From assembly GCF_001447785.1 (NCBI RefSeq), contig NW_015161498.1:124001-188000 (forward strand): a DNA stretch of 64,000 bases, in the 5' to 3' direction. The translations under genes were made by a program, and so were the position numbers. Positions 1,668-64,000 of the stretch are shown piece by piece; the stretch's first letter is position 1; each line of letters begins with the position of its first letter. This DNA comes from Gekko japonicus (lineage: Eukaryota). The notes below the pieces were generated by a model, which had not been told where the DNA came from, did not search any database, and saw only the letters and a list, made by a program, of their open reading frames with translations.

Positions 1668-2520
1668 NNNNNNNNNNNNNNNNNNNNNNNNNNNNNNNNN
1701 NNNNNNNNNNNNNNNNNNNNNNNNNNNNNNNNNNNNNNNNNNNNNNNNNNNNNNNNNNNNNNNNNNNNNNNNNNNNNNNNNNNNNNNNNNNNNNNNNNNN
1801 NNNNNNNNNNNNNNNNNNNNNNNNNNNNNNNNNNNNNNNNNNNNNNNNNNNNNNNNNNNNNNNNNNNNNNNNNNNNNNNNNNNNNNNNNNNNNNNNNNNN
1901 NNNNNNNNNNNNNNNNNNNNNNNNNNNNNNNNNNNNNNNNNNNNNNNNNNNNNNNNNNNNNNNNNNNNNNNNNNNNNNNNNNNNNNNNNNNNNNNNNNNN
2001 NNNNNNNNNNNNNNNNNNNNNNNNNNNNNNNNNNNNNNNNNNNNNNNNNNNNNNNNNNNNNNNNNNNNNNNNNNNNNNNNNNNNNNNNNNNNNNNNNNNN
2101 NNNNNNNNNNNNNNNNNNNNNNNNNNNNNNNGCTCTTCCTGCCGGGCGTGCGCGCTGGGAGGGGCGCGCCGAGCTTCGGCCGGGCTGCCTTTCAGCACCT
2201 GAGCTGTGGACAGCGACCTGCCGGCGCCGCAGGGGACTGGGGAGAGCGGGCGGCCTGCCCTTCGCTCAGTCGACTCCGCCGGCCGGCAGCATCGTAGCAG
2301 GCAAGCCGCTTTCGGGGGATCCTAGAGATGCCCGGGGGGGGGGGAAGTCTCCCCCTGAGCCCGACCTCTTCCCAAGGCAAAGCCCCTCTCCCTGGCCGGG
2401 AAACCAGCCAGCGTCGTTTGTGGCGCGTTTGGTGCGGCCCTGACACAGTGGTAACTCGGGGCCCCGGTGGAAAGCTGGAAACCACGGCTCGGAACGGGCG
2501 GCTGAATGTTAGGGAGGCAA
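1050..2520. promoter_or_regulatory. CpG island over the alphaC2 promoter and 5' part of the exon
   Basis: Very high GC and CpG density on both sides of the gap; boundaries approximate. Confidence 0.75.
2191..2217 (+). promoter_or_regulatory. Non-canonical (spaced) REST/NRSF RE1 site
   Basis: TTCAGCACC (2191-2199) + 8-nt spacer TGAGCTGT + GGACAGCGAC (2208-2217); both half sites near consensus, just upstream of alphaC2. Confidence 0.75.
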
Positions 2521-15054: not shown

Positions 15055-15505
15055 AGTCCAACTAACAAACAAGTAAGCAGTCTTAAGCCAGCGGCCTGCA
15101 CTCTTTCTCACAAGGGTACCATCCAGCACTATCTACTAGCAGTTTCTTAGTGGAAGAGTCCTTTCATTTCAAGTCTCCCAAGGAAGAGAGGCATATCTGA
15201 GGATGTTCTGGGCCTGTTCCCACTACAAGGTCCCTAGGTAGGGTCTAGAGTTCTCCCAGAATTATGACTGATCTCCAGACTACAGAGATCAGTTCCTCTA
15301 AAGGAAATGGCAGGTCTGGAGGGTGGACTTTGTGTCAGCAGTTCCCAACCTTTTCGGTATGGTGGCCCACAAGTCCAAATTTACTTGATGTGGTGACCCA
15401 TCGTTTTGGATGTCTAGCTATTGGGGGGGGGGGGAAACGTGCAGATATGTTCTTGCAGAGGAGGGAGAGCTTGTACCTGAATAAAACTTGGTCTTAAAGG
15501 TTCCC

Positions 15506-38066: not shown

Positions 38067-38466
38067 CAGGGGTCATTTCCTGCAGGAGGGCACAGGAGCG
38101 GAGCTCCGGCAGTAAAGAGCCCAGGGGGTGGGCACATACAACAAGCCCCACCCCCTGCTCCCACAAGCCCTTAGTCANNNNNNNNNNNNNNNNNNNNNNN
38201 NNNNNNNNNNNNNNNNNNNNNNNNNNNNNNNNNNNNNNNNNNNNNNNNNNNNNNNNNNNNNNNNNNNNNNNNNNNNNNNNNNNTCGCAAACACAATGTTG
38301 ACCCTGCCCCCCCCCCCCAATAGCTAGCAATACAAAACAGTCCAGTGGAGCCTGAGCGGTGGATGTTGCCTTCTGACACACTTCCGGCGATGTCAGGGGG
38401 TGTGGTATATGCAAATGAGTTATGCTAATGAGCTCCTGCACCTCCTTTTCTACAAAATGACCCCTG
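38067..38466. mobile_element. hAT-type MITE family A (internal gap)
   Basis: Perfect TSD TTTATAGC. Confidence 0.88.
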
Positions 38467-41400
38467 TTTATAGCTCATCTTTCTTACTAAGACTCCAGTC
38501 AGATTACACAAGTAAATCATAGGTTTGATCCTATACTTTGATTCCACTTGTACAGAGCTGTCCTTTTTGGCAGAGCACATTCTTTCAGCATTAAGTGTTT
38601 CCATTCATGCAAGTCCACCATCTTTCAGTGAGCAGAAACAGCCAAATCCTAGAGAACTTGCCCACATGATGGCTGAAGAGCAGCGCAAGCAGAAGGAAAA
38701 TACAAGATCCATGCATTTGATGTTACACAGAATGAACTGGATAAAGAAGTCCAACTTTGGCTGAAAGACTTCATCACATCTCATGACGAGGACTTGCAAA
38801 CTACTTTTGTTAATCAGCTCATCCAAAATACATTTTATTTTGTAATAGCCAGTTTGCTACCATGAAGGGGTGTGGCCCAATATGCTAATGAGTTCCTGCT
38901 GTTGGTTGTGGCCTATTATGCTAATGAGTTCCTGCTGGGCTTTTTCTACAAAAAGAGCCCTGACTACATTAAAGTTGAAATCTAATGCATTTCAGCCACC
39001 AAGTAATAAATTGCTCAGACACAATACTAGCCCAAATATCTATGGTCTTGTACAGCAAATATCTAGGACATCTTAACAGGAAAAAAAAATGAGTATTTAA
39101 AAGCGGATTACCAAAACTTTAACATCACATGTGGAGAAAAGCTGAAAAAGATCACATCCCACCAGACATAATTACAGACCAATTTCAATTATTTGTCAAG
39201 GAACCATCAAGTGGCAGAAATTACAAACAGAAGCCTAGCAGTAAACTACGAAGCCCGTTCTTAACCATACTTCCCTAATCTAGCCCAGTTAACTTTGATT
39301 GTTCAAATCTAACGGTCCTTAAAGGAGAAGGGAAAGTACCTGCTGGGCTTTTTCTACAAAAAGAGCCCTGACTACATTAAAGTTGAAATCTAATGCATTT
39401 CAGCCACCAAGTAATAAATTGCTCAGACACAATACTAGCCCAAATACCTATGGTCTTGTATAGCAAATATCTAGGACATCTTAACAGAAAAAAAATGAGT
39501 ATTTAAAAGCGCATTACCAAAACTTTAACATCACATGTGGAGAAAAGTTGAAAAAGATCACAGACATAATTGCAGACCAATTTCAATTATTTGTCAAGGA
39601 ACCATCAAGTGGCAGAAATTACAAACAGAAGCCTAGCAGTAAAATACGAAGCCCGCTCTTAACCATACTTCCCTAATCTAGCTCAGTTAACTTTGCTTGT
39701 TCAAATCTAATGGTCCTTAAAGGAGAAGGGAAAGTAAAACAAGGAAAACATCAACACAGGACAGGACATCTTAAAACAAGCGGCCCCACATCAGGATTCC
39801 TTCCTCTTCTCCATGCATTCTTATTTGAATTTTGACCAGGGGTCGTTTCATAGAAAAAGAGCTAGGGGAACTCATTAGCATAACTCATTAGCATATGCCA
39901 CACACCCTGCCATCACCGGAAATGTGTCATAAGGCCACACCCCCTGACATCACCGGAAGTGTGTCATAAGGCCACACACTCTGCTCCCAATGGTCCCGGC
40001 CGCCACCGCCGGCCTTGCAGCTCCACTGCCGAGCCCCATGAATGGCCCGGCAGTGNNNNNNNNNNNNNNNNNNNNNNNNNNNNNNNNNNNNNNNNNNNNN
40101 NNNAGGGCAGATCTGCACGTTCCCCCCCCCCAATAGCTAGCAATCCAAAACAGTCCAGTGGAGCCTGAGCGGTGGGTGTTGCCTTCTGACACACTTTCGG
40201 CGATGTCAGGGGGTGTGGTATATGCAAATAAGTTATGCTAATGAGTTATGCTAATGAGCTCCTGCACCTATTTTTCTACAAAATGACCCCTGTTTATAGC
40301 TCATATTTCTTACTAAGACTCCATGCAGATTACACAAGTAAATCATAGTTTTGATCCTATACCTTGATTCCACTTGTACAGAGCTGTCCTTTTTGGCAGA
40401 GCACATTCTTTCAGCATTAAGTGTTTCCATTCATGCAAGTCCACCATCTTTCAGTGAGCAGAAACAGCCAAATCCTAGAGAACTTGCCCACATGATGGCT
40501 GAAGAGCAGCGCAAGCAGAAGGAAAATACAAGATCCATGCATTTGATGTTACACAGAATGAACTGGATAAAGAAGTCCAACTTTGGCTGAAAGACTTCAT
40601 CACATCTCATGACGAGGACTTGCAAACTACTTTTGTTAATCAGCTCATCCAAAATACATTTTATTTTGTAATAGCCAGTTTGCTACCATGATAAAATATT
40701 TCAAAACCGGGGGGGGGNNNNNNNNNNNNNNNNNNNNNNNNNNNNNNNNNNNNNNNNNNNNNNNNNNNNNNNNNNNNNNNNNNNNNNNNNNNNNNNNNNN
40801 NNNNNNNNNNNNNNNNNNNNNNNNNNNNNNNNNNNNNNNNNNNNNNNNNNNNNNNNNNNNNNNNNNNNNNNNNNNNNNNNNNNNNNNNNNNNNNNNNNNN
40901 NNNNNNNNNNNNNNNNNNNNNNNNNNNNNNNNNNNNNNNNNNNNNNNNNNNNNNNNNNNNNNNNNNNNNNNNNNNNNNNNNNNNNNNNNNNNNNNNNNNN
41001 NNNNNNNNNNNNNNNNNNNNNNNNNNNNNNNNNNNNNNNNNNNNNNNNNTAATGTGCTAATGAGCTGTGCTGTCAGGGGTGTGGCCCAATATGCTAATGA
41101 GTTCCTGCTGTTGGTTGTGGCCTATTATGCTAATGAGTTCCTGCTGGGCTTTTTCTACAAAAAGAGCCCTGACTACATTAAAGTTGAAATCTAATGCATT
41201 TCAGCCACCAAGTAATAAATTGCTCAGACACAATACTAGCCCAAATATCTATGGTCTTGTACAGCAAATATCTAGGACATCTTAACAGGAAAAAAAAATG
41301 AGTATTTAAAAGCGGATTACCAAAACTTTAACATCACATGTGGAGAAAAGCTGAAAAAGATCACATCCCACCAGACATAATTACAGACCAATTTCAATTA

Positions 41401-41696
41401 TTTGTCAAGGAACCATCAAGTGGCAGAAATTACAAACAGAAGCCTAGCAGTAAAATACGAAGCCCGCTCTTAACCATACTTCCCTAATCTAGCTCAGTTA
41501 ACTTTGCTTGTTCAAATCTAATGGTCCTTAAAGGAGAAGGGAAAGTAAAACAAGGAAAACATCAACACAGGACAGGACATCTTAAAACAAGCGGCCCCAC
41601 ATCAGGATTCCTTCCTCTTCTCCATGCATTCTTATTTGAATTTTGACCAGGGGTCGTTTCATAGAAAAAGAGCTAGGGGAACTCATTAGCATAACT
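38467..41696. repeat. Duplicated/triplicated blocks around gaps (38467-38865 = 40293-40690; 38866-39340 and 39339-39890 = parts of 41076-41696)
   Basis: Near-identical copies with few SNPs; hybrid MITE at 39837-40292 with mismatched flanks. Probable assembly artefact. Confidence 0.82.
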
Positions 41697-43786: not shown

Positions 43787-44457
43787 ATTTTAGGACTGGT
43801 GCCCATTCAAAGCCATTCTCTCATGTCCTGGACACTTGCCATTCCTTCATTCTAAATTGCTCCAGAGCCTCTCCCCACTCACACCCACCCATAGGAGTTC
43901 CGCACATGACAGTCATCACAAACATGCTTGGAACTGGGAATGGGGGGTACTGGCAATAAAAGGCTGATCAGGAGCAGTAAAATGGTTTTTTTTGGGGGGG
44001 GGGGATAGAATTTCAAAATCGGGATCACATTAACAAAACAAAATGACCTGATTAAGAAACTACACTTAAGTACCAATAGAGTGAGGTCAACCTATGCCAC
44101 CTATGAAAAAAGAATTAGGTTTGTGAAATTATGTAATAATTTTCAAATTAAATACTAAAAACCAAACATGGCACCCGCAATTTCATTTTTAATTTCAGCA
44201 ACCAAGTTTTCTTAATGGTGTGAACTGTATTGGCTTTGTGACCAAGCACATATTATGGTTGATTTCCATTCTAAAAGAAGTGGTAAAAGTGAATGCTGAG
44301 TAACTAGAAACAAAACACAGTGATCCCTTAAAGACATTAATTTTGAGTCATCAGATAATTTGTTCCATCAAGACTATGTTAAGGTGGGTATATATATTGT
44401 ATACACAAATGTTGGTTACATAATTGATAATTAATTAATCTCCCTTCTGAGACTTAC

Positions 44458-46818
44458 CTGCCCAGCAGCATTCGGGACCAGCTCCTTCCCACTCCCAGTC
44501 AAGACAGGAATGTTGGGGCTGAACACCATGAGGTCATTTTTGGCACCAGGCTCCCCACTCACCCCTGCCAGGATGTGGCTGTGGCGATTGGAATACGACC
44601 AGCTGCCCACTTCACTGGCACACACCAGCGTGGCTGTGCCAGGACCATACATCATTGCCTCCTTGGCCTGGCTCTGGCATCGCAGTGCCACATACACGAG
44701 GATCACCAGCAGGAACAAGCTGGACACTGAGCAGATGGCAATGATCAGGTAGAGATTAGCAGTGTCTGCCAGGGGCTTTGCACTCCCTCCCATCCTAGAG
44801 AGGCGGGCATCAGTCTGGGCAGCCTGGGCGCTGGCCACCAGTGACACACTGAAGGTGGCTGTAGTTGACAGTACCATCTTGCCATGATCCTTCACCAGAA
44901 CCAGCAGACTCTGGATGTTGCTGCCCTCTGCCTCCTCCAGAGCACGTGCAGTACTGATCTCACCACTGTAAAGCCCCACCCGCCAGGGGCTGCTGGTTGC
45001 ATCATACAACTCGTAGCGAAGCCAGGCATTGTAGCCAGAGTCAGCGTCCAGGGCATGGATCTTGCCCACCACATACCCAGCTGCCACTGGAACCTTCAGC
45101 AGACTGGGGGTATCCTCTGCTGGACCAGACACTGCAGGTGCATTGTCATTCTCATCCAACACAAAGACCTGGACGGTCACGTTGCCACACAGGGAGGGCA
45201 GCCCAGCATCCTTGGCCCTCACCCGGAACTCCAGCAGCTTCACCTCCTCGTAATCCAAGGGCTGCAGGGCATACAGCTTCCCACTCTCCGAATGCACCGA
45301 GATGTAGCTCGACAGCGGCCAGAGCTTCTCATCCAGCCAGTAGCTGACCAAGGCATTCTCCGCCACATCTGGGTCCGAGGCAGACACCGTGAAGATGTGA
45401 GCACCAGGTGGGTTGTTCTCCTTCACGAAAACAGTATAGGAGGGTTGTGCAAAAGTGGGTGCGTTGTCATTCACATCACTGATTGGCACCACCAGGCTGC
45501 TGCTGGCTGACAGTGGAGGGTCCCCTTGGTCTTGGGCAAACACCACCAAACTATACTCAGCCACCTGCTCCCGGTCCAGTGGCTTAGCCAGTACGAGTGA
45601 GTAGTAATTCTTGAAGGTGGATGTCAGCTTGAAAGGGAGCCCAGAGGGCCACATTGAACAGGTCACTTGCCCATTGGCCCCAGAGTCCCTGTCTGAGATA
45701 CTGATGAGGGCCACCACTGTCCCCGGTGGAGAGTTCTCAGGCACAGGCACTGACAAGGACGACACAGTCACTTCAGGAGCATTGTCATTCACATCCAAAA
45801 CCTCAATCAGAACTTTGCAGTGTCCTTTCATTGGTGGGATGCCTTTGTCAGTTGCTTCTACTCCAATTTCACCCAATTTAATGCTTTCAAAATCAAGTTC
45901 TCCATTTAATCTCATTTGTCCATTACTTGGATCTAAATTAATCAATGTTCCTAAATTGTTTGGATTTACACTTCGTATTGAATATGTGATATCTTTGTTA
46001 ATTCCTTCATCAAGATCTGTTGCATTGAGACTAACAATTACTGCTCCTATTTTTGCATTTTCCAAAAGTTTTATTTTATACACAGACTGATTAAAAATGG
46101 GTGCATTGTCATTTACATCCAGCACATTGATCACCAGATGAGCAGTGCCAGTTTGCTCTGGTTTGCCCCCATCAGTGGCTGTTAGTAATAAATTATACAC
46201 ATGAGTTAGCTCTCTGTCAAGAGGTTTCCTTAATACAATAACTAAAGACTCACCGGGTTCCTTGCTGTTTTGATAATCCAAGGTGAAATGTTCATTTGGA
46301 CTGATTTTGTAGCTGATGTGAGAGTTTGAACCAATGTCGTCATCAGAGGCTCCCTCTAGTGGGAAGGATGAGCCTGGAGGTCTAGACTCTGCAATAACCA
46401 GATTTTGCTCAGCTGCCGGGAATAGGGGCGCATTGTCATTTATGTCCTTGATCTCCACTTCCACATGGAAGACTCTCAGGGGTTTATCCAGGATCACTTC
46501 CAGGTGAATGGTGCATACCGGCATCTTGGCGCATAGCTCCTCCCGGTCTATCCGGGAATTAACAAATAAAATCCCATTCTGCAGGTTTACTTCAAAATAG
46601 TCTCTGCGGCCTTGGGACACCATCCGGAACATCCGAGGCATGAGTTCACCCACCTCTAGTCCCAGGTCCTGGGCAATGTGGCCCACGAAGGCGCCATGCT
46701 GGGATTCTTCTGGAACAGAATAATGGAGCTGCCCACTCCCCATTTCACAAGCGGTGTGGAGCAGAATCACCTGCAGCAGCCAGGATCTCACCAGGAGGCA
46801 TCGGTGCACAACAACCAT
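44458..46818 (-). CDS. Alternate protocadherin-alpha variable exon (787 codons; last before alphaC1)
   Basis: Intact ORF: signal peptide, QLHYSVPEESQHGAFVG, six cadherin repeats, TM LYLIIAICSVSSL, GSWSYS...DLMVFSP; phase-0 donor CAG|GTAAGT at 44458. PCDHA family; one-to-one orthology cannot be assigned. Confidence 0.96.
46348..46365 (-). promoter_or_regulatory. Exonic CTCF site (eCBS)
   Basis: Minus strand TTCCCACTAGAGGGAGCC over codons FPLEGA; strong CTCF core match. Confidence 0.75.
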
Positions 46819-46990
46819 AGCAACGGTAGGTTATATTCCTGGTTTTAAATATTATATCCACTCTCCAGATCTGACCTTAAATGGTGAGAAATGTTGCAGT
46901 ATCCATTCCATCTTCCTCGTACAGTCTCTTGTTCTTACTTGTGTGGCTGGGAGGGGCTTTGATCTTTGTCAGGAAGAGCCTTTCAGTTTT

Positions 46991-47014
46991 CAGTGGGCAG
47001 CGACATCTTGTGAC
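46991..47014 (-). promoter_or_regulatory. Promoter conserved sequence element (CSE / pCBS)
   Basis: Minus strand GTCACAAGATGTCGCTGCCCACTG with CGCT core, ~180 bp upstream of the ATG. Confidence 0.85.
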
Positions 47015-47643
47015 AATTAGTATAAATGCCCAATACATTTTTATCTTCCATTTTTTGATTTTTCGGATTTGTTTTATAATTGTGTTCTGTAATTTACCTG
47101 TAGTTTCATTATATTATTTTCTAGCATCACTCCAGGCAAAGTTAGTTCAGAGGGTTTAGACCAACAGTCTGGAACAATCATAGTACTGATCAACAAACCA
47201 GACAAAGTAAAAAATGGATTTTAAAAGGCCTCTAATGAACCTAGATGAACGTCATTTGGCTTCCACAGAGCTGTGGGTTAGAGCTATCAATTCAAAAGGT
47301 TTTATGCTTTCTTAGTATTGCAGAGATGTGTTCCCACTAGGAACACCTATAATATTTTCCACTTTGCTGTGTAGTAACAAGGGACCAAGTGAGCATTACT
47401 TTTCACTTGCAGCCCAAAGGAGAGGCCCATCAAGTCCACCTTACTGGCCTCTCTATTAACTTATGTCTATGTTTTTACATTGGGGCAGGTTTTTAATCAG
47501 TGGTAGCTTTTCTTTACACAAATCATAAGATATCACACACTTCCTTCAATCTGTTAAATAGACTTCTTTGGAGAGGTTAGTAACCAGTTCACTGGTTCAC
47601 AGCAAAATTATAAATCAACTCTAATTATTTAACATGTTGACAG

Positions 47644-47849
47644 CAGTGTTCCCTCTAAGCTGAGTTAGTGTGAGCTAGCTCACAGTTTTTTAGCCTCCAG
47701 CTCACAGATTTTTGTCTTAGTTCAGGAAGGATGGCTCCAAAGCGAACTGATTTATGCAGTAGCCAAATCACTTGCTCACAACTTTCATGCCCGTAGCTCA
47801 CAAAGTAGAATTTTTGCTCACAAGACTCTACAGCTTAGAGGGAGCATTG
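47644..47849. mobile_element. hAT-type MITE family B
   Basis: Perfect TSD GTTGACAG. Confidence 0.88.
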
Positions 47850-47909
47850 GTTGACAGCCTTAATATTAAATAATATGTTGTTTAGTTATGATTTAACTAG
47901 GAGTAAGGC

Positions 47910-48175
47910 CTGTTCCCTGGAAGGCCAGATAATGAAACTGAAGCTCAAATACTTTGGCCACCAAATGAGAAGGGAGCACTCACTGGAGAAGACCCTGATG
48001 CTGGGAAAGATTGAAGGGCAAAGAAGACGGGGACGGCAAAGGATGAGATGGTTAGACAGTGTCATCGATGCAACGAACATGAAATTGAGCAAACGTCAGA
48101 GGACGGAAGGCCTGGCGTGATCTGATCCATGGGGTCGCGAAGAGTCAGACTCGACTGTGCGACTGAACAACAACA
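47910..48175 (+). mobile_element. BovB 3' end, 5'-truncated
   Basis: CSLEGQIMKLKLKYFGHQMRREHSLEKTLMLGKIEG; (CAA)n tail; TSD AAGGCCTGTTC with 5' microhomology CTGTTC. Confidence 0.92.
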
Positions 48176-50788
48176 AAGGCCTGTTCTGGGAAGAAATACA
48201 AGAAGCTCTAGAAAGAGGTTCCTGGTGAGTGTCCTGGCTGTGGCTGGTGGCATGGCAGAGGGAAGGGGGAAATAGAGGGAGGCGGTTTCATAGCCAGTTA
48301 CAGGGTTGCCAACTGGGCTGGGAAATACCTGTAGATTTGAGGGCTGGACTCTGTCTTTTTTGGCGTGGCATCAAGGCACCCGTATTCTGTAGGGGAAATG
48401 ATGTGATGTGGCTGGGGGACACAGTCATTTCCAGAAGATCTCCAAGGCCCACAGGGAGATTGGCAACCCCAGTGAACATTTAGGAGACAATTGGGAGATG
48501 TATTTTATCTCAAGATAGATTCAATTATTCCCAACAGCAACAGCAAATTGTACAGAATGTTGGCAGCGAAGGGCAGTCAGGCTGCATATGCAAACAACCT
48601 CTGTGTTCTGACTGCCTATGGGGGGGAGAGGATAATGTACAGAATGGAGTGAGGCCCAATCAGCCCGCATATGCAAATGACCTTAAAAGGCTGGCCCAAT
48701 CAGGTAGTAAGGTGAGTCATCGGGAACACGGCTAGCATTTTATATATATCTAGATTAAATAACTTTCTGTCAAACACATACCTTTATACTATCATACACA
48801 TATAACTTGCCATTGTATGTATTAGATGTATCAAGCAAGTTGTTTCAAGGTAATTTAAGAAAACTGGATCAAGTCAAAATGGTTTTATCAGTAGATCAAC
48901 TAACTGAAGCTTAAATTGATTTAGCAGTGGGGCCACTTTTAAACAAAGATGAAAATATTTAGATGGGAGAGGCTGAAAGTTACAGAACCCTTTGTTTATT
49001 TTATGAGACTATAGTAACTATCTCGGGTTACTGTAATTGGGAATGAAAAGAAATTGTGTCTGTGTATATACATGCATACCGATGGAGACAGAGAGAGATG
49101 ATTGTTTTGTCCTCTAAAATTTATCCAAAGTTTCTTCCAGAGGCTATTGTTCTATGCATACCTCATGCACGACCTCCACTGAAAATATTACGGAATTATG
49201 ATCCCAAGAATTGTTGTGTAGCTCAAGATGGAAACTGCAGGTATAGATCCCTGATTCATGAACGGCGTAATTGGCTGGCTAGAATAACCAATGAGTTCAT
49301 TCAGATAAAAGCCAAGACCACTGTAGACTGACTTTTTATATATCAAACTGAAAAGCAGGTGAATTTACCAAGTCAGACGAGAGGGTATTTCACATTGTCA
49401 TAGATGAAGAATAAACAGAAGAATCAGTCGAAGAACAGAAAAACTCCAGCATTCAGATTTTGAGATGATGCCACCATGCTAACTACAAAAAAAGTCCCTT
49501 TGTCCACCATTTTCATCGTCTCCTGCATCCTTACTATGAAATAGGACCACTGCCATATAATTTGTGATACATGAAATTCCGGGGTCATATCTGGTACTGC
49601 AATAAATTAAGGAAGAACGCACACACATATGTTATATGAGGATATGTATATCTTTCTTTTTAATAAATATATTAATCCCTGCATGATTTGGAGTACAGAG
49701 TATGAGGAAGAACCCTTCAACTGATGACCTGAATTATGTGTGGGGCTACTTATTTGCTGACTTGCTGTTCCATTAACCTTTCCATTATCTTGTTGGAAAG
49801 TATGAAAAGGACCTCAGACCTGGGATGAGTTATCTTGCTGATTGACTGATGATAATGATGAAGAAGAAGAAGACGACTTTAGGAAATATCCATTTGATTC
49901 TGGATCTTCTTTGAGAATTTCCTGAATTATTTTCACAGCATATGGATTCACATTAATATCATACCACCATCAGTTTGTCTGAAGAAAGGCAAATATTCAA
50001 ATTAATAAATAAGCAAAAACACCAAGGATATTGCAACTAAAAAGCCTTGACATGCTGGAAAAGGTGGAAATGCTCTGAGGGAAGAGGCTTGTTTACTGCC
50101 CAGGCAGACAGAAACAGCTATGAAGGTATATCTGTTTCTGGAGAGCAAAATTGTAAAGTTAATTGAGTAATAGTGCAGGCAGGACACACTACAGACTAAC
50201 TCTGCACTGCCACACTGGCTGCTGATTCTTGAGAATGTTGCTTCATCCTCCTCCTAGACCTCTCAGCTATACTTGCTGGTTCTGTGTCTCACTCCTGAAG
50301 TTCAGATTCTTGAAGGATTGGATCAGGAGCCTAAAGCCAATTCTCCTAAACAAACTTTTATCTCTAAAACTCCCAGTTCCTCAGACAACTCAAAAGTCAA
50401 CCTCAGTTATTCAGTTATTCCCAGCATCAGGTTTTTATTTTGCAAAGTAGGGGTCCAGCAGAGGGCTTTGAAAGAGAGGCATTTATCTCCGCCATGTGCT
50501 CAGTGGCCTTTATAGGGCTATGTAGGGATAAAATCTCGGTGAAAAGCTACGATCTATATATAATCACATAACTTTTTTCTATCATCTTTTTCTCCATAGC
50601 TTTCAATATTATTTTCCTCCTGTAGATCTCAAAATTGGAAATGACCAAAACAACACCGGCTAGCCCAATTACAGAAATTACAGAACCACCTACCCAGCAG
50701 GCAGACCAAGCCCGGCAACCCAGGAAATGATGGAACCCAAACAGCACAGGTGCAAAGGAAGAGGAGTTTCCAGAGTTATCAACTAGGG

Positions 50789-51106
50789 CAGTGATGGTGA
50801 ACCTTTTAGAGACCGAGTGCCCAAACTGCAACCCAAAACCCACTTATTTATCGCAAAGTGCCAACATGGCAATTTAAACTGAATACTGAGGTTTTAGTTT
50901 AGAAAAAACAACTCATACATTAACATAAGATGATCCAAACAAAGTAAGGAAAGCAATCCCAACTGCTTTCATTTATTTAAAATTATTTGGCAGAGAATTC
51001 CACACTTTAATGACGGTCTGGGCCTGGCTGGGCGATGGCACGCGTGCCCACTGAGAGGGCTCTGAGTGCCGCCTCTGCCATGCGTGCCATAGGTTCTCCA
51101 CCACTG
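50789..51106. mobile_element. hAT-type MITE family C, inverted copy
   Basis: Perfect TSD AACTAGGG; reverse complement of 19604-19922. Confidence 0.9.
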
Positions 51107-54100
51107 AACTAGGGCGATTTGTACACATAAGCCAAGCCAATGACCATCTGGTGTGGTGCCCTTGCTCTCCTTTCTGTATACTCCCAGGATTGCAAGATGA
51201 TATTAACCAAGAAATGACGAAACAGAAGAGCTCAGAATCATAACCAGATAAACACATTCACAACCATCTCTCCTCAGAGTTTGCTTTACAATTGTCCAGA
51301 ACGTATGAAGAGATATGATGTTATCTGCACATTATCAAAAGTTACAATTTTTCTGCCATTACTTTAAATCATGCCCATTTAATAGGGTTACCAGCCTCAA
51401 GGTAAGGACTGGACTTCTCTCAGAATTACAACAGATCTCCAGGCAGCTGCTCCCCTGGAGGAAAGGGCGGGCTTGGACTCTATGAGTCTAGGAAAACAGA
51501 AGTCCTAGAGTGAGTATAGAGGATGGATACTCCAGGACGTTTTAAATCTCCTACTGCATAGAACCTAAATGGTATACCATATAGACTAGGAGAAACCACT
51601 TGTCTCTTCTAAAGACACTAAAGATCAGAGGCTGCTTGGTGATTGAGAGAAGTATGGGACTGTTGCTGGCTGGCATCTTTCTACAGAGTGGATTTTTTTC
51701 TCCTTAACAACGAGAAAAACTTGAAGAGGATTTTGAGAGGTGTTTTAAGTTGACTGGAGCATAACTGGATAGCAACCAGTATTATCAGCACAAATATTTA
51801 GGATCAAAGAGTTAGTTGACATACACAACACGTGCATAAAGAAGCCTACAAGTGATATATGGAATATGGGGGAAGTGATATAACGTGGGAAATTTAAAAT
51901 AAGAATTTTGGCAGGAGGAAGTGACTTCACAAGAAGGGGAGGAGTTGGAAGAGCTGGCCTTTGACTGGGAGATCACAGGAGTTGAACTCACAGGACACGA
52001 TATCACATCCCCACTGATCTCTCACCCCAAACTCTGCTCCCCCCAGGCAGCACCCCCAAAGTTTCCGAGAATTTCCCAAACCATGATTGGCAACCTTGTA
52101 TTTTAAACATTATTCTTTGATATTTGAACTGCAGATGAGATATTAGATGTTAATCGCCAGAACATTGGCCATTGCCCTACTTTTCAGTTCTCCCATTACA
52201 AGGGTGATATTTGAAAAATGACGTTTCCCATATTAACTTTCTCAAAGATACGTTTAAAGTATTTCTTAACTAAAGCTGCATTCATATATCATTACTAACT
52301 CTGACTTAAACTTTGGTTGATTGTGATGTCTGAAAGCTGGCCACTCCTCTGACTATGTTGGAGGGTCACAGACTAGATTCTGAACCAGAGTTTGTTCCTG
52401 GCTTGCAAACCATGCTTTGTACTAACTGTGGCTGGTTGTGTCATCTGAATGCAGAACCCCAGCTTGTTGAGTTGTGCTGCCCCACTCCCCCAGATACAGA
52501 GCAACTAGAAGTCCTTTTTGCTCCTGCTGCAGCCTGTTCTTCCTGTTGCTACCTCTCAACATGCCTCCATCTTGCTCAGAATGTCCTGAGCCCCCATTCT
52601 CTCTTCCAAGTAATAATGATTCATCCAACTGGAGTGCATGGTTCTAGCCTATGTGGATAAAGGGATAACAGAGGATCTAATCTTGCCAACAAGCAGGAAT
52701 TGCTCCATATAGAATGATTAGAAATACACAACATACCTTACAGCACATCTTCCTCCCCCCCTTCTCTTCTTATTCTCTCTTTCCTCCCCAACCCTAGCAC
52801 AAAGCATTTTGGCAGTGTGCGCAACATGAACCACAGTCCTGGGGAGGTGAATGATTTACTGAGATGCATACACACACACACACACACACAAATTTATACA
52901 GAGAGCCTACCCAAACAAGTCAAGATGGACTGACTGCTTCCCCTGCATATCATAGATGCAACATGCAGAGGTCACACAACCTCTTCTTGCAAATTATTTC
53001 AATAGATTTCCCAGAGTACAGCTGGAATTCATAAACTATGCAGCCTACAACCCCATGAACTTGAAGGACAAATTTTCAAATTGATATTGATGAAAACAAA
53101 TAGCATCTCCATCAGTATACACAGTCAAGAAATCAGGTTTTCTCACTGTGCAAATTCATATCCCATTACTGACTTCTTCCTTTTTTAAAAAGTTATGATG
53201 CCTCTTCAGGAACGTGCCTGAAATAGCTCAAAAAACAAAAATAAAAACAAAACAAAATGCCATAAAAAACAGCCCACCATTAAACACAGACCGTAAAAAG
53301 AGAGTTTAAAAATAACAGCCGTAAGACTAAAATCGTGTTTGCTTGTTTGTTTTTTAAAAAATCAAACCCTAAATTAAAAGCCTAGGTGAACAGAAATGTT
53401 TTGGCCCAGCACCTAAAAGAAAGCAATGTAGGCATCAGGTGGGCTGCAAGGGGGAAGGGCATTCCCAAAGCAAGGTGCCACTACAGAAAATGCTGTCTCT
53501 ATTTTTATTTATTTGTTATTAATTTTTTATCTCGCCCTGCCAGCCAAGGCCAGCTCAGGGCGGCTTACAACAATAAAATTCGCATAAAACAATCATAATA
53601 AAATCACATACAACATTAAAATTGAAACATGATAAAGTGCTAGCAACAATCCTCATTATCCCAATTGGGTCTTCGGCCTTCTGTGGCTATCTCAGGTAAT
53701 TGGCACGAGCTGTGTTTGAGGGACCTACGGACTGCTCTAGTAACCACCTGTGAGCCAGGGCTTAATGGGCGAGCAGGACAATATACAAAGAGGTTGTCCT
53801 TCAGGTGGTCCTTATTTCTAGTATTGTTTACTATTTACTTAACAGCAAGAACAGGATTTAAAACTTTAAACTAGATAATCCATTTGAAATAGCTTGGCCT
53901 ATGTATTTAGTTAAAGTAACTGTAATTTTTTGTAAGATTTTGTAAAATAGTAAGGTCAAGGGCATTCATAGTTTACAGATTAGAAAATGGGATTTATATT
54001 GTGTTATCTGCATAAAAACAAAAGTCACAATTTCTTGTTTACCATTACACTATAACATGCCCATAATATGCTGTTATCAAAGGTGGAAAATCAGTACAGA

Positions 54101-54188
54101 CAGCACAATAAACAGTCTATGTGGACATCTTGATTTCGGCAATGGTTTCCAAATGTCTGTAAGATGCCATTGTTGCCAAGAAACACAA

Positions 54189-54463
54189 GGAAGGAGGGGG
54201 AGGAGATTGGATTTATACCCCACCCTTCTCTACCCAAAGGTGTCTCAGAGCGGCTGACAAACTCCTTTCCCTTCCCCTCCCCACAACAGATACCCTGTGA
54301 GGTAGGTGGGGCTGAGAGAGCTCTTCTGAGGACTGCTCTTGAGAAAACAGCTCTGAGATAACTTGTGACTGACCCAGCAGCTGCATGTGGAGGAGTGGGG
54401 AATCAAATCTGATTCTCCTAGATTAGAGTCCGCTCTCTTAACCACTACACCAAACTGGCTCTC
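54189..54463 (-). mobile_element. Squam3-like SINE
   Basis: Colinear with 19163-19455. Confidence 0.8.
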
Positions 54464-55564
54464 TTGTAGAAGTGGGCCTTGTAGATGAAGAGGCCATGTA
54501 AAGAAGAGCGAACAGAACTCTCAGTGGCTGAGGATGCTAGCAGCAGGTGATGCATCTGACTCCCATCCGAAGCATGTCCCCAGATTAACCCCTTTACTTC
54601 ATTCCATATACATAAATCTGGGAGAAAATAAAGGGCTTGTTGCAGTGAAAGCAAACCCTGCCTCCCACTCCTGATGCTTCATAGCCAGAGCCTTGCAGGG
54701 GAATGAGCCCAGAGCACATAAGGATGTGGTGTGTTGGGGTAGTGTAGTATACACCTGCAACAAAACACTGCCATTGTTTGTATTTTTAAAAACAGGAAAT
54801 AAACCATTTCAACCACAGTCGTTCTATTGTTTTTCAGAAATGTTGGTAGACAACAGAGAACTTTGATCCCTCCTGCCTATGATTGTTTCATGAGGCTTTA
54901 TCTGGTGTTTTTATGACTGTATAATTCAGAGGGTCTCTGGACAGGCAGCATTAAAATCTCCTAAATAAGCAAACAAGCAGGGACCTGGAGCATACTTTTG
55001 TGTGCCCAGGGCTTCCTTCACCAGGCTCAGCAAAAGTTCCGCAGGTCTCTGAAGAGGTGGCACACAGATTTAATTTATTTTAAACATTTATCTGCCACTT
55101 CTTCAGATCAAATAACGAAAATTATAGAGGTTGGTTTCACCATACAATACACCCAGGAGCTTAAACCCCAACTATCTGAAAGGCATACTTAAGAAAACAG
55201 ATACAAGGACATGGTTGAACTGATCTTATCAAATAAGTATGGATAATTCTCACACACACCCAACACTACTGTAACATAGACACTGAAGAACCACTGAGGG
55301 TTACAAGTATTAATTGAAGTACAAAAAGAATAGACATGGGAGGAGGAATTAAGTAGTACTGTACCAGGAAGGAAAGCAGAGAGGAATCAATATAATGAAA
55401 CATAAACTAAACAGATGCACGGTAAATATAGTTCTTAGAAATGAATAACATACAAAAACAGTCCTCCCTCCGGTAAAATAAGTTTCATGCCAAAAGGAAT
55501 AACAAATACCAAAACATGGCAAATGTACCAAAACAAAATAATTGTGTCAATGACTGCAACTCAC

Positions 55565-57925
55565 CTGCCCAGTAGCATTCGGGACCAGCTCCTTCCCACT
55601 CTCGGCCAAAACAGGAATGTTGGGGCTGAACACCATGAGGTCGCTTTTGGCACCAGCATCCCCACTCACCCCTGCCAGGATGTGGCTGTGGCGATTGGAA
55701 TACGACCAGCTGCCCACTTCACTGGCACACACCAGCGTGGCTGTGCCAGGACCATACATCATTGCCTCCTTGGCCTGGCTCTGGCATCGCAGTGCCACAT
55801 ACACGAGGATCACCAGCAGGAACAAGCTGGACACTGAGCAGATGGCGATGATCAGGTAGAGATTAGCAGTGTCTGCCAGGGGCTTTGCGCTCCCTCCCAT
55901 CCTAGAGAGGCGGGCATCAGTCTGGGCAGCCTGGGCGCTGGCCACCAGTGACACGCTGAAGGTCGCTGTCGTTGACAGTACCGGCTTGCCATGATCCTTC
56001 ACCAGAACCAGCAGACTCTGGATGTTGCTGCCCTCTGTCTCCTCCAGAGTACGTATGGTACTGATCTCACCACTGTAAAGCCCCACCCGCCAGGGGCTGC
56101 TGGTTGCATCCTGCAACTCGTAGCGAAGCCAGGCATTGTAGCCAGAGTCAGCGTCCAGGGCATGGATCTTGCCCACCACATACCCAGCTGCCACTGGAAC
56201 CTTCACCAGAGTGGGGGTATCCTCTGCTGGACCAGACACTGCAGGTGTGTTGTCATTCTCATCCAACACAAAGACCTGGACGGTCACGTTGCCACACAGG
56301 GAGGGCAGCCCAGCATCCTTGGCCCTCACCTGGAACTCCAGCAGCTTCACCTCCTCGTAATCCAAGGGCTGCAGGGCATACAGCTTCCCACTCTCCGAAT
56401 GCACCGAGATGTAGCTCGACAGCGGCCAGAGCTTCTCATCCAGCCAGTAGCTGACCAAGGCGTTCTCCGCCACATCTGGGTCCGAGGCAGACACCGTGAA
56501 GATGTGAGCACCAGGTGGGTTGTTCTCCTTCACGAAAATGGTATAGGAGGGTTGTGCAAAAGTCGGTGCATTGTCATTCACATCACTGATTGGCACCACC
56601 AGGCTGCTGCTGGCTGACAGTGGAGGGTCCCCTTGGTCTTGGGCAAACACCACCAAACTATACTCGGCCACCTGCTCCCGGTCCAGTGGCTCAGCCAGTA
56701 CGAGTGAGTAATAATTCTTGAAGGTGGATGTCAGCTTGAAGGGGAGCCCAGAAGGCCGTAGGGAGCAGGTCACTTGCCCATTGGCCCCAGAGTCCCTGTC
56801 CGAGATACTGATGAGGGCCACCACTGTCCCCAGTGGAGAATTCTCAAGTACCGGCACTGACAAGGAGGATACTGTCACTTCTGGTGCATTGTCATTAACA
56901 TCCAAAACCTCAATCAGAACTTTGCAATGTCCTTTTATGGGTGGGAGGCCTTTGTCAGTTGCTTCAATTGCAATTTCACTTGATGTAATACTTTCAAAAT
57001 CAAGTTCTCCATTTAATCTCATTTGTCCATTACTTGGATCTAAATTAATCAATGTTCCTAAATTGTTTGGATTTACACTTCGTATTGAATATGTGATATC
57101 TTTGTTAATTCCTTCATCAAGATCTGTTGCATTGAGACTAACAATTACTGCTCCTATTTTTGCATTTTCCAAAAGTTTTATTTTATACACAGACTGATTA
57201 AAAATGGGTGCATTGTCATTTACATCCAGCACATTGATCACCAGATGAGCAGTGCCAGTTTGCTCTGGTTTGCCCCCATCAGTGGCTGTTAGTAATAAAT
57301 TATACACATGAGTTAGCTCTCTGTCAAGAGGTTTCTTTAACACTAGAAGTAAAGACTCACCATGTTCCTCATTGTCTTGAACATCCAAGGTGAAATGTTC
57401 ATTTGGACTGATTTTGTAGCTGATGTGAGAGTTTGAACCAATGTCGTCATCAGAGGCTCCCTCTAGTGGGAAGGATGAGCCCAGAAGAGTAGATTCTGCA
57501 ATAACCAGATTTTGCTCAGCTGCCGGGAATAGGGGCGCATTGTCATTTATGTCCTTGATCTCCACTTCCACATGGAAGACTCTCAGGGGTTTATCCAGGA
57601 TCACTTCCAGGTGAATGGTGCATACCGGCATCTTGGCGCATAGCTCCTCCCGGTCTATCCGGGAATTAACAAATAAAATCCCATTCTGCAGGTTTACTTC
57701 AAAATAGTCTCTGCGGCCTTGGGACACCATCCGGAACATCCGAGGCATGAGTTCACCCACCTCTAGTCCCAGGTCCTGGGCAATGTGGCCCACGAAGGCG
57801 CCATGCTGGGATTCTTCTGGAACAGAATAATGGAGCTGCCCACTCCCCATTTCACAAGCGGTGTGGAGCAGAATCACCTGCAGCAGCCAGGATCTCACCA
57901 GGAGGCATCGGTGCACAACAACCAT
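55565..57925 (-). CDS. Alternate protocadherin-alpha variable exon (787 codons), close paralogue of 44458-46818
   Basis: Intact ORF with the same architecture; phase-0 donor CAG|GTGAGT at 55565; constant 11107-bp offset to the paralogue with no indels. Confidence 0.96.
57455..57472 (-). promoter_or_regulatory. Exonic CTCF site (eCBS)
   Basis: Identical to 46348-46365. Confidence 0.75.
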
Positions 57926-58097
57926 AGCAACGGTAGGTTATATTCCTGGTTTTAAATATTATATCCACTCTCCAGATCTGACCTTAAATGGTGAGAAATG
58001 TTGCAGTATCCATTCCATCTTCCTCGTACAGTCTCTTGTTCTTACTTGTGTGGCTGGGAGGGGCTTTGATCTTTGTCAGGAAGAGCCTTTCAGTTTT

Positions 58098-58121
58098 CAG
58101 TGGGCAGCGACATCTTGTGAC
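58098..58121 (-). promoter_or_regulatory. Promoter CSE / pCBS
   Basis: Identical to 46991-47014. Confidence 0.85.
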
Positions 58122-60439
58122 AATTGGTATAAATGCTGGACACATTTTTAGTTTCCATTTTCTGAGTTTCTTAGATTAATTTCATAATTATATTCTGGAA
58201 TTTACCTGCAGCTTCATTATATTACTTCCTAACATTTGGCTGTGCAAATTCAATCCAAAGTTTTTAGATAAGTACTTTGAAATAGTCATTGCCCTAATTT
58301 TAAATATTCAGACAAAGTAAAAATGGATTTTAACTGGCCCCAAATGAACTTAGATGAAAATATTTCAGCTTCCACTGAGCTGTGGATTGGAGCTATCAGT
58401 TCAAAAGGCTGTATATTTTCTTAGTAGTGTAGAGACATGTCGTGCATTTTAGCGGTTCCCACTAAAAACCAAGGGGCATTATTTCAGGCCAAGAGCCCAA
58501 ACAATAGAACCATCAAGACCACAAGACTTACCTTCCTATGTCTATGTGTTTATGCTGGGCCAGGGTTTTAATGCTGGATTTTAATTAATATCGTCAATCT
58601 TTTGTTTTTATAATTTTTTTGAAAACTGTAAGCTATATTTGGCATGTTCCTGTAGAAGTTGCATGAAAACTTTCTAAATGAATAACCTAAACCTACACAA
58701 CAAAGACTAAATTCACAAGCTTGCAAGGAGCTCCAAAGATGTCTAGTGTTCTCTCTGTCAGAAAGGGTGAATCCCAGGATTTTTTAATGATCTTGTAGGG
58801 AGATTCCTTCCACACCCCAAATATAGCAGTTAAGAGCAGTGGATTCTTATCCTATTCTTAATAGGATATTATTAGTTGTGATCTGTGATTTTATTGGATT
58901 TTATTGTTTTTATGAATGGGTTTATGCCCCTGTAAGCCGCCCTGAGCCCGCTTGCGGGGAGGGCGGGGTAAAAATACCTAAAATAAATAATAAATAAATA
59001 ATCTGAAGAACTGTGTTTGATTCCCCACCCCTCCACATGAAGCCTGCCGGGTGACCTTGGGCCAGCCACAGTTCTCTCAGAACACTTTCAACCCCACCTC
59101 CCTCGCCAGGTGCCTGCTGTGGTGAGAAGAAGGGGAGGAGAGTGTAAGCAGCTTTGAGGCTCCTTTAGAGAAAAGCAGGGTATAAACATCAACTCTTCCT
59201 TCAACTCTAAGGAAGGCTCACAATTGGTCTGTTGTGCAGAAAATAACATAGCTCTTGACTGAATGTCACTCTATCATCTGTGTAATGCAAACAACAATAA
59301 ATGCTTTCTGATGTAAAGTGGATCATTATATATATAATATATATATATTCTAGACGCATTTCGCCATTCCAAATCTTGGAGCTTGGCAGCAGCAAGAATA
59401 ACAAGGAGAGAGGTGTTCTTCCTTCCTCCTGTGCTCTGCTTTTTGGTTCCAGGTTTCAGCTACTATTGGACCCAGGTGGCAGCAGCTCAGGTTTGGTGGG
59501 AAGAGATAACTGGCACAATCCACAGCAGTCACCTGCCCCTCTGCCAATGTGGTGCCCCAAGCAGCTGCCTGCATCACTTGGATGTTGAACCAGCTCAGTA
59601 TAGATCATTACTGTAAGGTGATTCCCCCATGTTATTGGTATGTTTTGGATAGCCTCTGCAGAATGGCTGTCTTGGTTATTAGTACTTTTTATATTTCATT
59701 GTAGTCAGTCTCTAATAATAAACTGTTTCGTCAACTCTATCATACAAAAGCAGTGCTTCTCAGTCTCTCTTTTAATTACCCGAATAACTTATCAAATGTT
59801 ATTTGTGAAATGTAGGTCTTATGATAATTTGTAAATAGGCCAGCAATATCTAAGTTTATGTGAGGTAACTGGATCAAACCAAAATGCTTTTAGCAGTAAA
59901 TTAATCAACTGAAGCTTAAACCGATTTGAGCAATGGTGCCACTTTTAATCAATGATGTAAAATTTTCAATGGGAGTGGCAAACATAACAGAAACCCTTGT
60001 TTGTTTATGAGGCAATTTTCGTCCTCTTGTGTTATTGTAAAAAGTAATGAAAAAGAATTTTTTGTGTGTGTGTGTGTGTATATATATGCATACAGATTGA
60101 GCCAACGCCAGATTATTGACCTCCAAAACCTATTTGAAGTTTCTTCCAGGGGGTACTGTTCTCTATGTACTTCAGGTAGCTGCTTGCATCCAACTCCTGG
60201 CTAAAATTCATTTTCAATCTAGTGAGTCTAGACCCCTGAATCTTTGCCGACAGCCACCACTCAACCTGGCTAAGTGCAGTCAAGGGGAAACTCCAGGAGC
60301 ACAGCTTCTCCTCTCAAGTTTTACTGCATCTTGGGTATCAAAAAGCAAAAGAAACAATCAAACATTGGTTCGGGAATCATGCCGTACAATCAGATAGGGC
60401 ACAGCTACCGAAATATCCAGTTATTCTGCAGCATGACAA

Positions 60440-60800: not shown

Positions 60801-62570
60801 ACAAGCAGCTAGTCCCAGTAACTTTGCCTGCCTGTTGGAGGAGGGCTTTACTTTTCTTGTCCCCCCTCTTAATCTCTGTTCATTGCTTTATGCTTGTTGG
60901 CTTTTGTGGCCTGCATGCATCCAATGCCAGCATTCCACTCCAGCTGGTATGGGTGTGGGACCCCTGCCCCCTCCCCCTCAGTTGCAGCTGTTGACTGTGA
61001 CTAAACCTCCATCACCATATTGGCCAATGCTGCTTTGCAACAGGAGCCGTTGGGAGAGAGAAAGTGCAGTTCTGTGTTTAGGAAAAGGGTAGGAGAGGTA
61101 GTCTATAGTGTGTTCTGCCCACACTGTTCCTCAAATGGCATTACAATTTTGCTCTATGCAAACCCATCCAGAAACAGATACACCCTCATGGCTATTTCTC
61201 TCTGCTTGGATAGGTAAATGAACTTCCTCCCTCAGAGCATCTTCACCTTTTCCATTATTTCAAGGCTTTTCAGTTGCAATATCCTTGTTGTTTTGTTTAT
61301 GTATTAATTTAAATATTCATAGACCGCCTTTTTTCAGACAAACTGATGGTGATATGATGTTAATCTAAATCCACACACTGTGAAGATAATTTGGGAAGTT
61401 CTCAAGAAGATGCAGAGTCAAAATGGGCTTTTTCTAAAGGTTTTCCCTTGTCTTTTTTAATGAACAGTCTGTCAACAAGATAACTTGTCCTAGGTCCCAG
61501 TTCCTTTCATACTCTCCAACGAGACAATGAAAATGTTAATGGAACATTATTGAGGCTCATCATTTGAAGGAAGTGTTCTTACTCTTACTCTATACCCAAA
61601 GAATGCTGGGATTAAAATATATATCCTCAAAGAAGTCACATAAAGACAAACACTACAGTCTTGGTGAAAGGTGGGAAGCCTGCTTCCTCTGAAATCCTGT
61701 CAATCCTTTTTGCAAAAGGAAGAAGCAATTTGGGAAGAGAGATTAAAGTTAGTTCATCAAAGCACATAGATGGACCAATTATGTGGCAATGCTCCTAACT
61801 TAATGATAAAGATACAGAAGATGATCAAATTAATGAACAAAGGGACCTCTTTTGTAGTTAGCATTCTGGCATCATCTAAAATCTGAACACTGAAACTTTT
61901 CTGCTGTTTGACTGATTCTGCTGTTTATTTTTCATCTATGGCAATGTAAAATACCATCTCATCTGACTTGGTAAATTCACCCACCTTTCAGTTTGATTAT
62001 ATAAAAAAAAAAGTCAATCTATGATGGTCTCAGCTTTAATCTAAACAAATTCATTGGTTCTTCCAGTCACTCAGTAAAACTTCTCCTTAAGTATATCAAA
62101 AAACTCCATAGAGACTAGGAGAAACTTCTTGTCACTTTTAAAGACACTAAATGCCACAGGCTGCTTGGTGATTGAGAGGGATGGGACTGTTGTTGGCTTG
62201 CATCCTCCTAGTCAGTGGATTTTATTATTTTATTTTTTGCCTTAGCAATGAGAAAAACCTTTAGGATTTTGAAAGGTATTTTAGGCCTAAAACTTCGAAT
62301 ACATTTTTCCCTTTAATGGGGGGGACCATTTTGGCAGTCTCTAGAAGCCTAACATTAAAATGGTGGCTCAGCCACAGGGATCTTCTGCAAACCACCAAAC
62401 AAGAATTGCTTGGGATCGATCCATTTGGAAGAAGAGTACAATCCGCACAGGACAGGCTTTTAAAAAATGCCAAGATGACAACCAGTGTGCAGAATCAAAT
62501 TAGGGAATCACTAAGAAAAAACCATGCAAATTCACAAGGAAGGGCAGGAAATTTGCATTACTATGCATCT

Positions 62571-63925
62571 ACCTTAGAAAGCATTACTAACAACAAAGCT
62601 AGTGGAGGTGATGGTATCCCAGCTGAGCTATTCAAAGTCTTAAAAGATGATGCTGTTATAGTGCTGCACTCAATTTGCCAGCAAATTTGGAAAACGCAAC
62701 AGTGGCCACGGGATTGGAAAAGGTCACTATACATTCCAATCCCAAAGAAGGGCAATGCCAAGGAATGTTCAGACTACTGCACAATTGCACTCATATCACA
62801 CGCTAGCAAGGTCATGCTCAAGATCCTACAAGCTAGGCTTCAACAGTACGTGGATAGAGAACTGCCAGAAGTACAAGCTGGGTTTCGAAGAGGTAGAGGA
62901 ACTAGAGATCAAATTGCCAACATTTGCTGGATTATGGAGAAAGCAAGAGAGTACCAGAAAAACATCTACTTCTGCTTCATTGACTATGCTAAAGCCTTTG
63001 ACTGTGTGGATCACAACAAACTATGGCAGGTCCTTAAAGAGATGGGAGTACCAGACCACCTCACATGTCTCTTGAGAAACCTGTATAAGGGTCAAGAAGC
63101 GACAGTTAGAACCGGATATGGAACAACTGATTGGTATAGCATAGGAAAAGGAGTACGACAAGGATGTATATTGTCACCTTGCTTATTTACTATATATGCA
63201 GAGTACATCATGCGAAATGCTGGCCTGGATGAATCACAAGTGGGAATTAAGATTGCTGGGAAAAAGATCAACAACCTCAGAAATGCAGACGATACCACTC
63301 TAATGGCAGAAAGTGAAGAGGACCTAAAGAGCCTATTGCTCAGGGTAAAAGAGGAGAGCGCAAAAGTGGGCTTGAAGCTCAACATCAAAAAAACTAAGAT
63401 CATGGCATCCGGCCCCATCACTCCTTGGCAAATAGAAGGGGAAGTCGTGGAAGTAGTGACAGACTTCACGTTCCTGGGATCCCAGATCACCGCAGACTGT
63501 GACTGCAGCCATGAAATTAAAAGACGCCTGCTCCTTGGGAGGAAAGCGATGGCGAACCTAAACAGCATGATAAAAAGTAGAGACATCACCCTGCCAACAA
63601 AAATCCGCATGGTCAAAGCAATGGTATTCCCAGTAGTCATGTATGGCTGCGAGAGTTGGACTATAAGGAAGGCCGAGCGCCGAAGAATAGATTCTTTTGA
63701 ACTATGGTGCTGGAGAAGACTCTTGAGAGTCCCTTGGACTGCAAGAAGATCAAATCAGTCAATCCTAAAAGAAATCAACCCTGACTGTTCCCTGGAAGGC
63801 CAGATAATGAAACTGAAGCTCAAATACTTTGGCCACAGAGGACGGCAGAAGACAGGAAGGCCTGGCGTGATCTGGTCCATGGGGTCACAAAGAGTCGGAC
63901 TCGACTGTGCGACTGAACAACAACA
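62571..63925 (+). mobile_element. BovB (RTE) LINE, 5'-truncated, with open RT reading frame
   Basis: Frame from 62574: KASGGDGIPAEL...QAGFRRGRGTRDQI...FIDYAKAFD...GVRQGCILSP...LRNADD; (CAA)n tail; TSD ATGCATCT (62563-62570 / 63926-63933). Confidence 0.95.
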
Positions 63926-64000
63926 ATGCATCTGCGCCACAACATGGGCAAAAATACTCCCCAATTTTTTTCAGTTTATTGGCACAAGACTAAAAAACCT

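Follow-up and report, generated by a model that had tools for sequence, protein, structure and literature searches.

We describe a pair of variable exons, A and B, of the protocadherin-alpha (Pcdh-alpha) cluster of Gekko japonicus, whose 3' end lies on the minus strand of a 64,000-nucleotide stretch of genomic DNA (RefSeq assembly GCF_001447785.1, contig NW_015161498.1, positions 124,001 to 188,000 of the forward strand; hereafter the window). The two exons are identical over long tracts and differ in short patches within extracellular cadherin (EC) repeats two and three. The explanation that we favor, with moderate confidence, is that these are old tandem exons homogenised by repeated gene conversion, that the patches have been kept apart at a predicted recognition interface by selection for difference, and that the way the window joins its EC2 and EC3 patches is likely to be an assembly error.

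Exons A and B align without a gap at an offset of 11107 bp, both on the minus strand, with 86 differences in 2562 bp (Table 1). An identical run of 631 bp was reached in none of 100,000 shuffles, and when only silent differences were used, which 44 of 788 codons contain, the probabilities were 0.005 for the longest run and 1.3e-4 for the clustering; these permutation tests stood in for GENECONV. An earlier reading of the same DNA, made from its letters without database searches (the sequence-only reading), had proposed three base-identical tracts, quoted three divergent peptide pairs and judged the intergenic DNA to be 75-80% identical and the duplication old. The tracts are indeed present, silent sites included, at 631, 99 and 345 bp, and the peptides were quoted correctly. 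Alignable flanks measure 75.8% and, in a second one at 48862-49153, 77.5%, and identity this low means that the duplication is old. A recent duplication is accordingly rejected, given these flanks and a proportion of synonymous differences (pS) of 0.25 in the block that follows patch P3; purifying selection alone is rejected as well, since silent differences are absent across stretches of 143 and 114 codons. The proposed division into three divergent islands stands for P1 and P2 and not for P3, which forms the margin of an unconverted, mostly silent block of 325 bp whose silent divergence continues to codon 420 (45559); its residue changes concentrate at codons 314-330 (45829-45878).

Tract T1 includes 200 bp 5' of the ATG and begins just upstream of the CGCT box of a putative conserved sequence element (CSE), as that element is defined in PMC7811963 (for this and all papers cited here, our statements concern the portions of text available to us). 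Across EC1-4 the exon products differ at 23 of 424 residues (94.6% identical), with EC1 identical; beyond P3 there are five more residue changes in EC4 and ten in EC5-6, and the differences counted in EC4-EC6 include 23.5 that are non-synonymous and 26.5 that are synonymous. G+C content at third codon positions (GC3), which is expected to be raised in converted regions, is 0.61 in T1, 0.72 over codons 421-558, 0.21 in T2 and 0.52-0.56 in the unconverted block.

Each exon has the makeup of a Pcdh-alpha alternate exon, with a signal peptide, six EC repeats, a transmembrane segment and a variable tail encoded in a single large exon; the listed open reading frames (ORFs) span 44431-46818 for A and 55547-57925 for B. 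The nearest solved relatives of the products in a PDB search are mouse alpha7 (8e-184) and then alpha4, and squamate alpha homologues are among the protein matches. Both products also match two RefSeq Gekko japonicus proteins over the displayed stretches, which is not independent support because those entries probably stem from annotation of this very assembly. In about 3% of RNA run X21 from a related organism (organism A, below), 19 reads, which may include close paralogues, exit at 44458 into constant-exon sequence encoding PKPPNP. Few reads of this run fall on either type of P2, namely four of the A-type at 46263 and two of the B-type at 46229-46242.

Table 1. Coordinates in the window of exons A and B and of the tracts and patches discussed in the text (copy B in brackets; EC, extracellular cadherin repeat; pN, proportion of non-synonymous differences)
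Feature	Position	Strand	Basis or remark
Pcdh-alpha variable exon A: signal peptide, EC1-6, transmembrane segment, variable tail	44458..46818	-	ORF, PDB matches, donor, RNA
Exon A as final alternate exon ahead of the C-type-like exons; GT donor	after 44458	-	donor check
Pcdh-alpha variable exon B, paralogue at +11107, GT donor	55565..57925	-	ORF, alignment, donor
CGCT box of putative CSE promoter element, inside T1	46999..47002 (58106-58109)	-	motif only
Identical tract T1, 631 bp: promoter CGCT element, 5' leader, signal peptide, EC1, EC2 start	46388..47018 (57495-58125)	-
Patch P1, codons 144-148; mature 117-119 differ, RPP/TLL	46375..46387 (57482-57494)	-
Identical tract, 99 bp	46276..46374 (57383-57481)	-	also a 0-difference double-depth contig in run X2
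Patch P2, codons 182-197, mature 153-168, presumed EC2 beta4-beta5 loop region; 8 residue changes	46229..46275 (57336-57382)	-
Identical tract T2, 345 bp: EC2 end and two thirds of EC3	45884..46228 (56991-57335)	-
Patch P3, codons 312-330, mature 283-301, EC3; 7 residue changes including 290 and 301	45829..45883 (56936-56990)	-
Unconverted, mostly silent block, codons 331-420, 270 bp; pS 0.25, pN 0.027	45559..45828 (56666-56935)	-
3' part of low divergence (pS 0.03-0.07, codons 421-755); identical runs of 95, 130 and 188 bp	44458..45558	-
Upstream flank, alignable, 75.8% identical to 58127-58435	47020..47326	-

The homogenisation of this pair is probably biological and not just an assembly collapse, because independent runs of related organisms show the shared tracts at double depth. 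These data comprise 8 of 24 listed runs from related organisms coded A to D, the reads being those of relatives and not of the window's own DNA; the run search listed none that contains half of the window's sequence words and none recorded as RNA. Run X1 of organism A gives one 552-bp contig over 46388-46939 at a depth of 141, against 59-70 in the flank, with 6 of 552 positions differing from the window, and P2 separates there into depths of 73 and 52. A single contig is likewise obtained from run X11 of organism B (495 bp, depth 47 against 19-25, 16/495 differences) and from run X15 of organism C (709 bp, depth 19.8 against 9-10.5, 31/709 differences). Since single double-depth contigs carry these differences, both copies in organisms A-C share changes of their own lineage, and the depth points to two copies in each of the three. 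The two Euleptes paralogues, in an assembly of their own, show no differences over residues 45-143.

Comparison of sequences shows that patches P1 to P3 are old and common to orthologues in two gecko families. The G. kuhli gene model P0125 fuses two adjacent variable exons and is not a real single protein; it is useful for gene order, since the two exons follow one another in it as in the gene. The downstream one has P1a, P2a, Q287/F289 and the residues TSS in P3 (together the first type), with a read-through end as in exon A, and the upstream one has P1b, P2b and the residues KLG; the same pair of types recurs in Euleptes sequences X1 and X5. In the alignment, the remaining lizards are of the P2b/KLG type, so the first type is derived; Sphaerodactylus has a gene with TSA. 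Among the matches listed in the protein search, which was length-limited, EC2 patches of the A-type turned up in no additional protein beyond Euleptes X1. In quartets of G. kuhli against Euleptes, 18 sites group by species, 14 by orthology and 1 is swapped, orthologues thus being closer than paralogues in the patches. The window against G. kuhli gives 10 sites by species, 12 by orthology (at 146-197 and 560-630) and 8 swapped, all of these at 314-390, and 26 sites group the window pair against the Euleptes pair. A tree of EC1 plus EC4b-6 (16 rows, with distant lizards omitted except Tiliqua) groups the paralogues by species in Euleptes (98/96), in Eublepharis (100/98) and, weakly, in the window (85/83), leaving the two G. 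kuhli exons without resolution. In the EC2 region exon A joins G. kuhli exon 2 and Euleptes X1 (95/88), and in the EC3 region it is exon B that joins these two, together with Sphaerodactylus (94/96). Tracts free of silent differences in old duplicates, in which paralogues are closer than orthologues by quartets, trees and depth, lead us to infer gene conversion, and such tracts within EC2-EC3 support the earlier claim that conversion reached inside these repeats. The complete sweep of T2 in the window is recent, because the paralogues differ over that stretch at 15 residues in G. kuhli and 13 in Euleptes and because its GC3 is 0.21. A third paralogue as donor of the patches is not needed, both types having orthologues in other geckos and the depth in organisms A-C being that of two copies.

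The patches turn over between lineages, and the divergence does not form a peak fixed in all of them. Organisms B and C each show one type of P1, the A-type in B and the B-type in C; all P2 in organism D is of the B-type (97.8/97.8, given without a flank depth); P3 is KLG only, at a depth of 154 and hence double, in run X2 of organism A, the state of P3 in run X1 not being shown; and the window has lost the Q287/F289 patch. Nevertheless, at least two of the three patches are kept in all seven lineages in which both genes were seen. Organisms B, C and D have extra EC3 differences at window positions 45912-45952 (including F289 and A291) that are linked to the TSS copy and absent from both window copies. 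Conversely, A43, A97, V262 and M302 (46692, 46530, 46035 and 45913) occur in both window copies and differ in nearly all relatives; they are either changes of the window lineage that spread to both genes or copies made by the assembler.

The patches are predicted to lie at or next to known trans-interface positions, as the sequence-only reading had proposed. This mapping used ungapped alignment without coordinates, with chain numbering assumed to equal that of the papers, and the full published lists in figures and supplements may bear on it. P2 is probably the EC2 beta4-beta5 loop region. That loop is isoform-specific and variably touches EC3 in alpha isoforms (PMC5001838). In P2, alpha residues 156 and 157, which both differ, align with N155 and L156 of gammaB3, which contact T286 (bioRxiv 10.1101/493106); T286 corresponds to alpha 288, within P3 and identical in exons A and B. 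In P3, mature residue 290 (G/A) aligns with gammaC4 D290, central in the EC2:EC3 interface, and residue 301 (M/I) with alpha7 L301, L301R being among the constructs in PMC8901172, which reports the former and describes trans-disrupting mutants. P1 (117-119) adjoins position 116, the equivalent of gammaA8 I116, gammaC5 S116 and beta6 S117, and position 116 is the same in both exons. Confining trans-specificity to EC2/EC3 is a simplification, since EC1:EC4 also carries specificity (PMC5106212). A complex prediction of the exon-A EC1-4 homodimer returned an ipSAE of 0.00 in both runs with no contacts and was not used either way.

Several assembly-related explanations have to be weighed against this picture. 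That the identical tracts are a short-read collapse, with one paralogue's sequence placed at both loci, is very improbable. The assembly is gapped and the read evidence comes from relatives, yet shared tracts recur at double depth in the runs of organisms A-D (organism D without flank depth), contig breaks fall at patch edges (the X1 contig starts at 46388 and an X2 contig at 46276), close variants were retained as separate contigs, and the Euleptes paralogues are identical over residues 45-143 in their own assembly. Mis-phasing is a different matter. The EC3-EC4 block of the window (P3 and the silent block) is carried by the other gene of the pair than in G. kuhli, in Euleptes and in organism B, the last as phased by depth, which is not formal phasing: run X12 has one class with TSS at 29.6, the middle segment at 31.6 and P2a at 29.4, and another with KLG at 16.5, the middle at 17.7 and P2b at 18.2, and run X11 of the same sample gives the same linkage. 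We infer that the assembler probably misplaced the block, a real exchange being less probable. The block lies in the middle of the exon, with identical tracts of 345 bp on one side and 95-130 bp on the other, the assembly has 10 N gaps here, some beside duplications of 92-99% identity, and fugu Pcdh clusters have been misassembled for the same reason (PMC1852091). Local duplications of 90-99% identity, which may be false duplications of the short-read assembly, lie at 38309-41696 and 15501-17214, both beside N gaps, and at 9397-11417. If conversion and selection acted as we favor and the arrangement in the window were nonetheless genuine, a reciprocal EC3-EC4 exchange would have made two new EC2/EC3 combinations. 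P2a with KLG does occur in run X2 of organism A, P2b with TSS occurs in organism D, and neither exon contains an N gap; this version needs extra events, however, and has G. kuhli, Euleptes and both runs from the organism B sample agreeing on the other phase, so that we regard it as quite unlikely. A bolder proposal, which we consider unlikely as well if a little less so, is that gecko alpha pairs gain new codes of neuronal identity when interface cassettes the size of a loop are shuffled, the EC2 and EC3 patches recombining freely through conversion and reciprocal exchange, with the swap in the window real and selection acting only for a difference between isoforms and not for keeping given lock-and-key pairs joined. 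Because mis-phasing is more likely than a real exchange, the assembled forms of both proteins may be chimeric, and the suggestion that they form a natural minimal pair is doubtful for the pair as it stands in the assembly.

The other question is whether selection has kept the patches. Conversion might be real and the patches neutral left-overs, with clustered mismatches hindering conversion, random overwriting and no selection for difference, an alternative that we find doubtful. It would account for the loss of each patch somewhere and for the persistence of the silent block 331-420, and the pN below pS and the missing patch enrichment in Heteronotia, both given below, also speak for it. It sits less well with P2, a 47-bp patch kept in six of seven lineages in two gecko families while its flanks were homogenised separately in each. 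Amino-acid changes are also enriched in the patches, where non-synonymous to synonymous differences stand at 19.5:10.5, whereas block 331-420, of equal age, has 5.5:17.5 (Fisher p of 0.002-0.012, depending on rounding), for patches that were defined after the fact. A separate expansion in Eublepharis varies at the same places (12/40 in patches against 17/177 outside, p=0.0016); the enrichments in Euleptes and G. kuhli are not independent of the window. There are, however, a number of points that weigh against our favored explanation. In the patches pN (0.21) is below pS (0.38), so there is no formal positive selection; no patch is strictly protected, because each is of a single type in some organism; and the 270-bp silent block escaped conversion too, without an interface reason. 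Four Heteronotia paralogues lack patch enrichment (6/40 against 27/177, p=0.6), and A-type P2 is in none of four Heteronotia, three Eublepharis and one Paroedura proteins. The tree supports of the window pair and of the EC3 clade fall under the starred threshold, the reads are not from the window's own DNA, and the double-depth contigs may drop isolated single-base differences, close variants elsewhere having stayed separate. The claim that selection kept only the recognition loops distinct is therefore not supported, in view of the silent block, the pN below pS and the single-type patches. The subfamily has expanded on its own in Heteronotia (P0040, P0124, P0126, P0127) and in Eublepharis (P0057, P0128, P0129).

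According to the explanation that we prefer, two old tandem exons are likely to have been kept near-identical by recurrent conversion across 11 kb, seeded in the identical flanks and sometimes overwriting one patch in one lineage. The short EC2/EC3 patches, predicted to touch the partner molecule, would persist as selection disfavors equal isoforms. One gene would be the canonical lizard type (P1b, P2b, KLG) and the other, with P1a, P2a, Q287/F289 and TSS, a derived isoform that G. kuhli and Euleptes have conserved, and the P3-EC4 block of the window would most likely have been misplaced between identical tracts by the short-read assembler.

Elsewhere in the window, a GC-rich protocadherin exon at 27400-29802 (minus strand), probably alpha-C1, has a frame shift across a 42-N gap (27824-27865) that is likely a gap artefact. 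A second C-type-like exon at 1-2300 (minus strand), presumably alpha-C2, has N gaps at 272-300 and 1668-2131 and extends past the window edge. Upstream of exon B, a long open frame at 62316-63998 (plus strand) resembles, we assume, an RTE/BovB-type reverse transcriptase.

Conversion that spares EC2/EC3 is established for clustered protocadherins (PMC1852091 for fugu; PMC4978886 for Xenopus; PMC3966226, summarising Noonan 2004; PMC7811963), and little conversion was reported for those of the anole (PMC2764143). The gecko pair is like these systems in that tandem variable exons are homogenised within species and EC2/EC3 divergence is kept. In those systems, however, conversion is mainly in EC4-6 or 3' regions, whereas here the promoter and EC1 are most homogenised and conversion has gone inside EC2-EC3, leaving patches of 13-55 bp and one silent block. 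Models exist of how divergence peaks under conversion (Innan/Teshima; PMC3924837, PMC3966226), and the resemblance to red/green opsin exon 5 and RHCE/RHD exon 7 is that only short functional regions have orthologues more alike than paralogues; the gecko pair, in contrast, has three peaks, each lost in some lineage, in place of one fixed peak, and its function is predicted. Very similar isoforms are also known in the mouse pairs alpha7/alpha8, beta6/beta8 and gammaA8/gammaA9 (PMC8901172; bioRxiv 10.1101/493106), and for beta6/beta8, 92% identical in EC1-4, five interface residues set specificity (PMC8901172). Compared with these, the gecko pair, known here from sequence alone, adds its higher EC1-4 identity, an identical EC1 and natural patch-loss variants. 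In the literature searched, which left most subscription papers outside, we came upon neither this pair nor any loop-scale islands in a swept EC2-EC3 with turnover by lineage, and it is these islands that appear to be new.

The two database proteins may be assembly chimeras, and phasing matters before any bench use. The origin and upkeep of distinct homophilic Pcdh isoforms under conversion have usually been studied at the resolution of whole domains. The gecko pair narrows the question to three short patches, with natural variants that miss each patch in turn, and lets one ask how few differences separate isoforms and if the patches of EC2 and EC3 have to evolve together.

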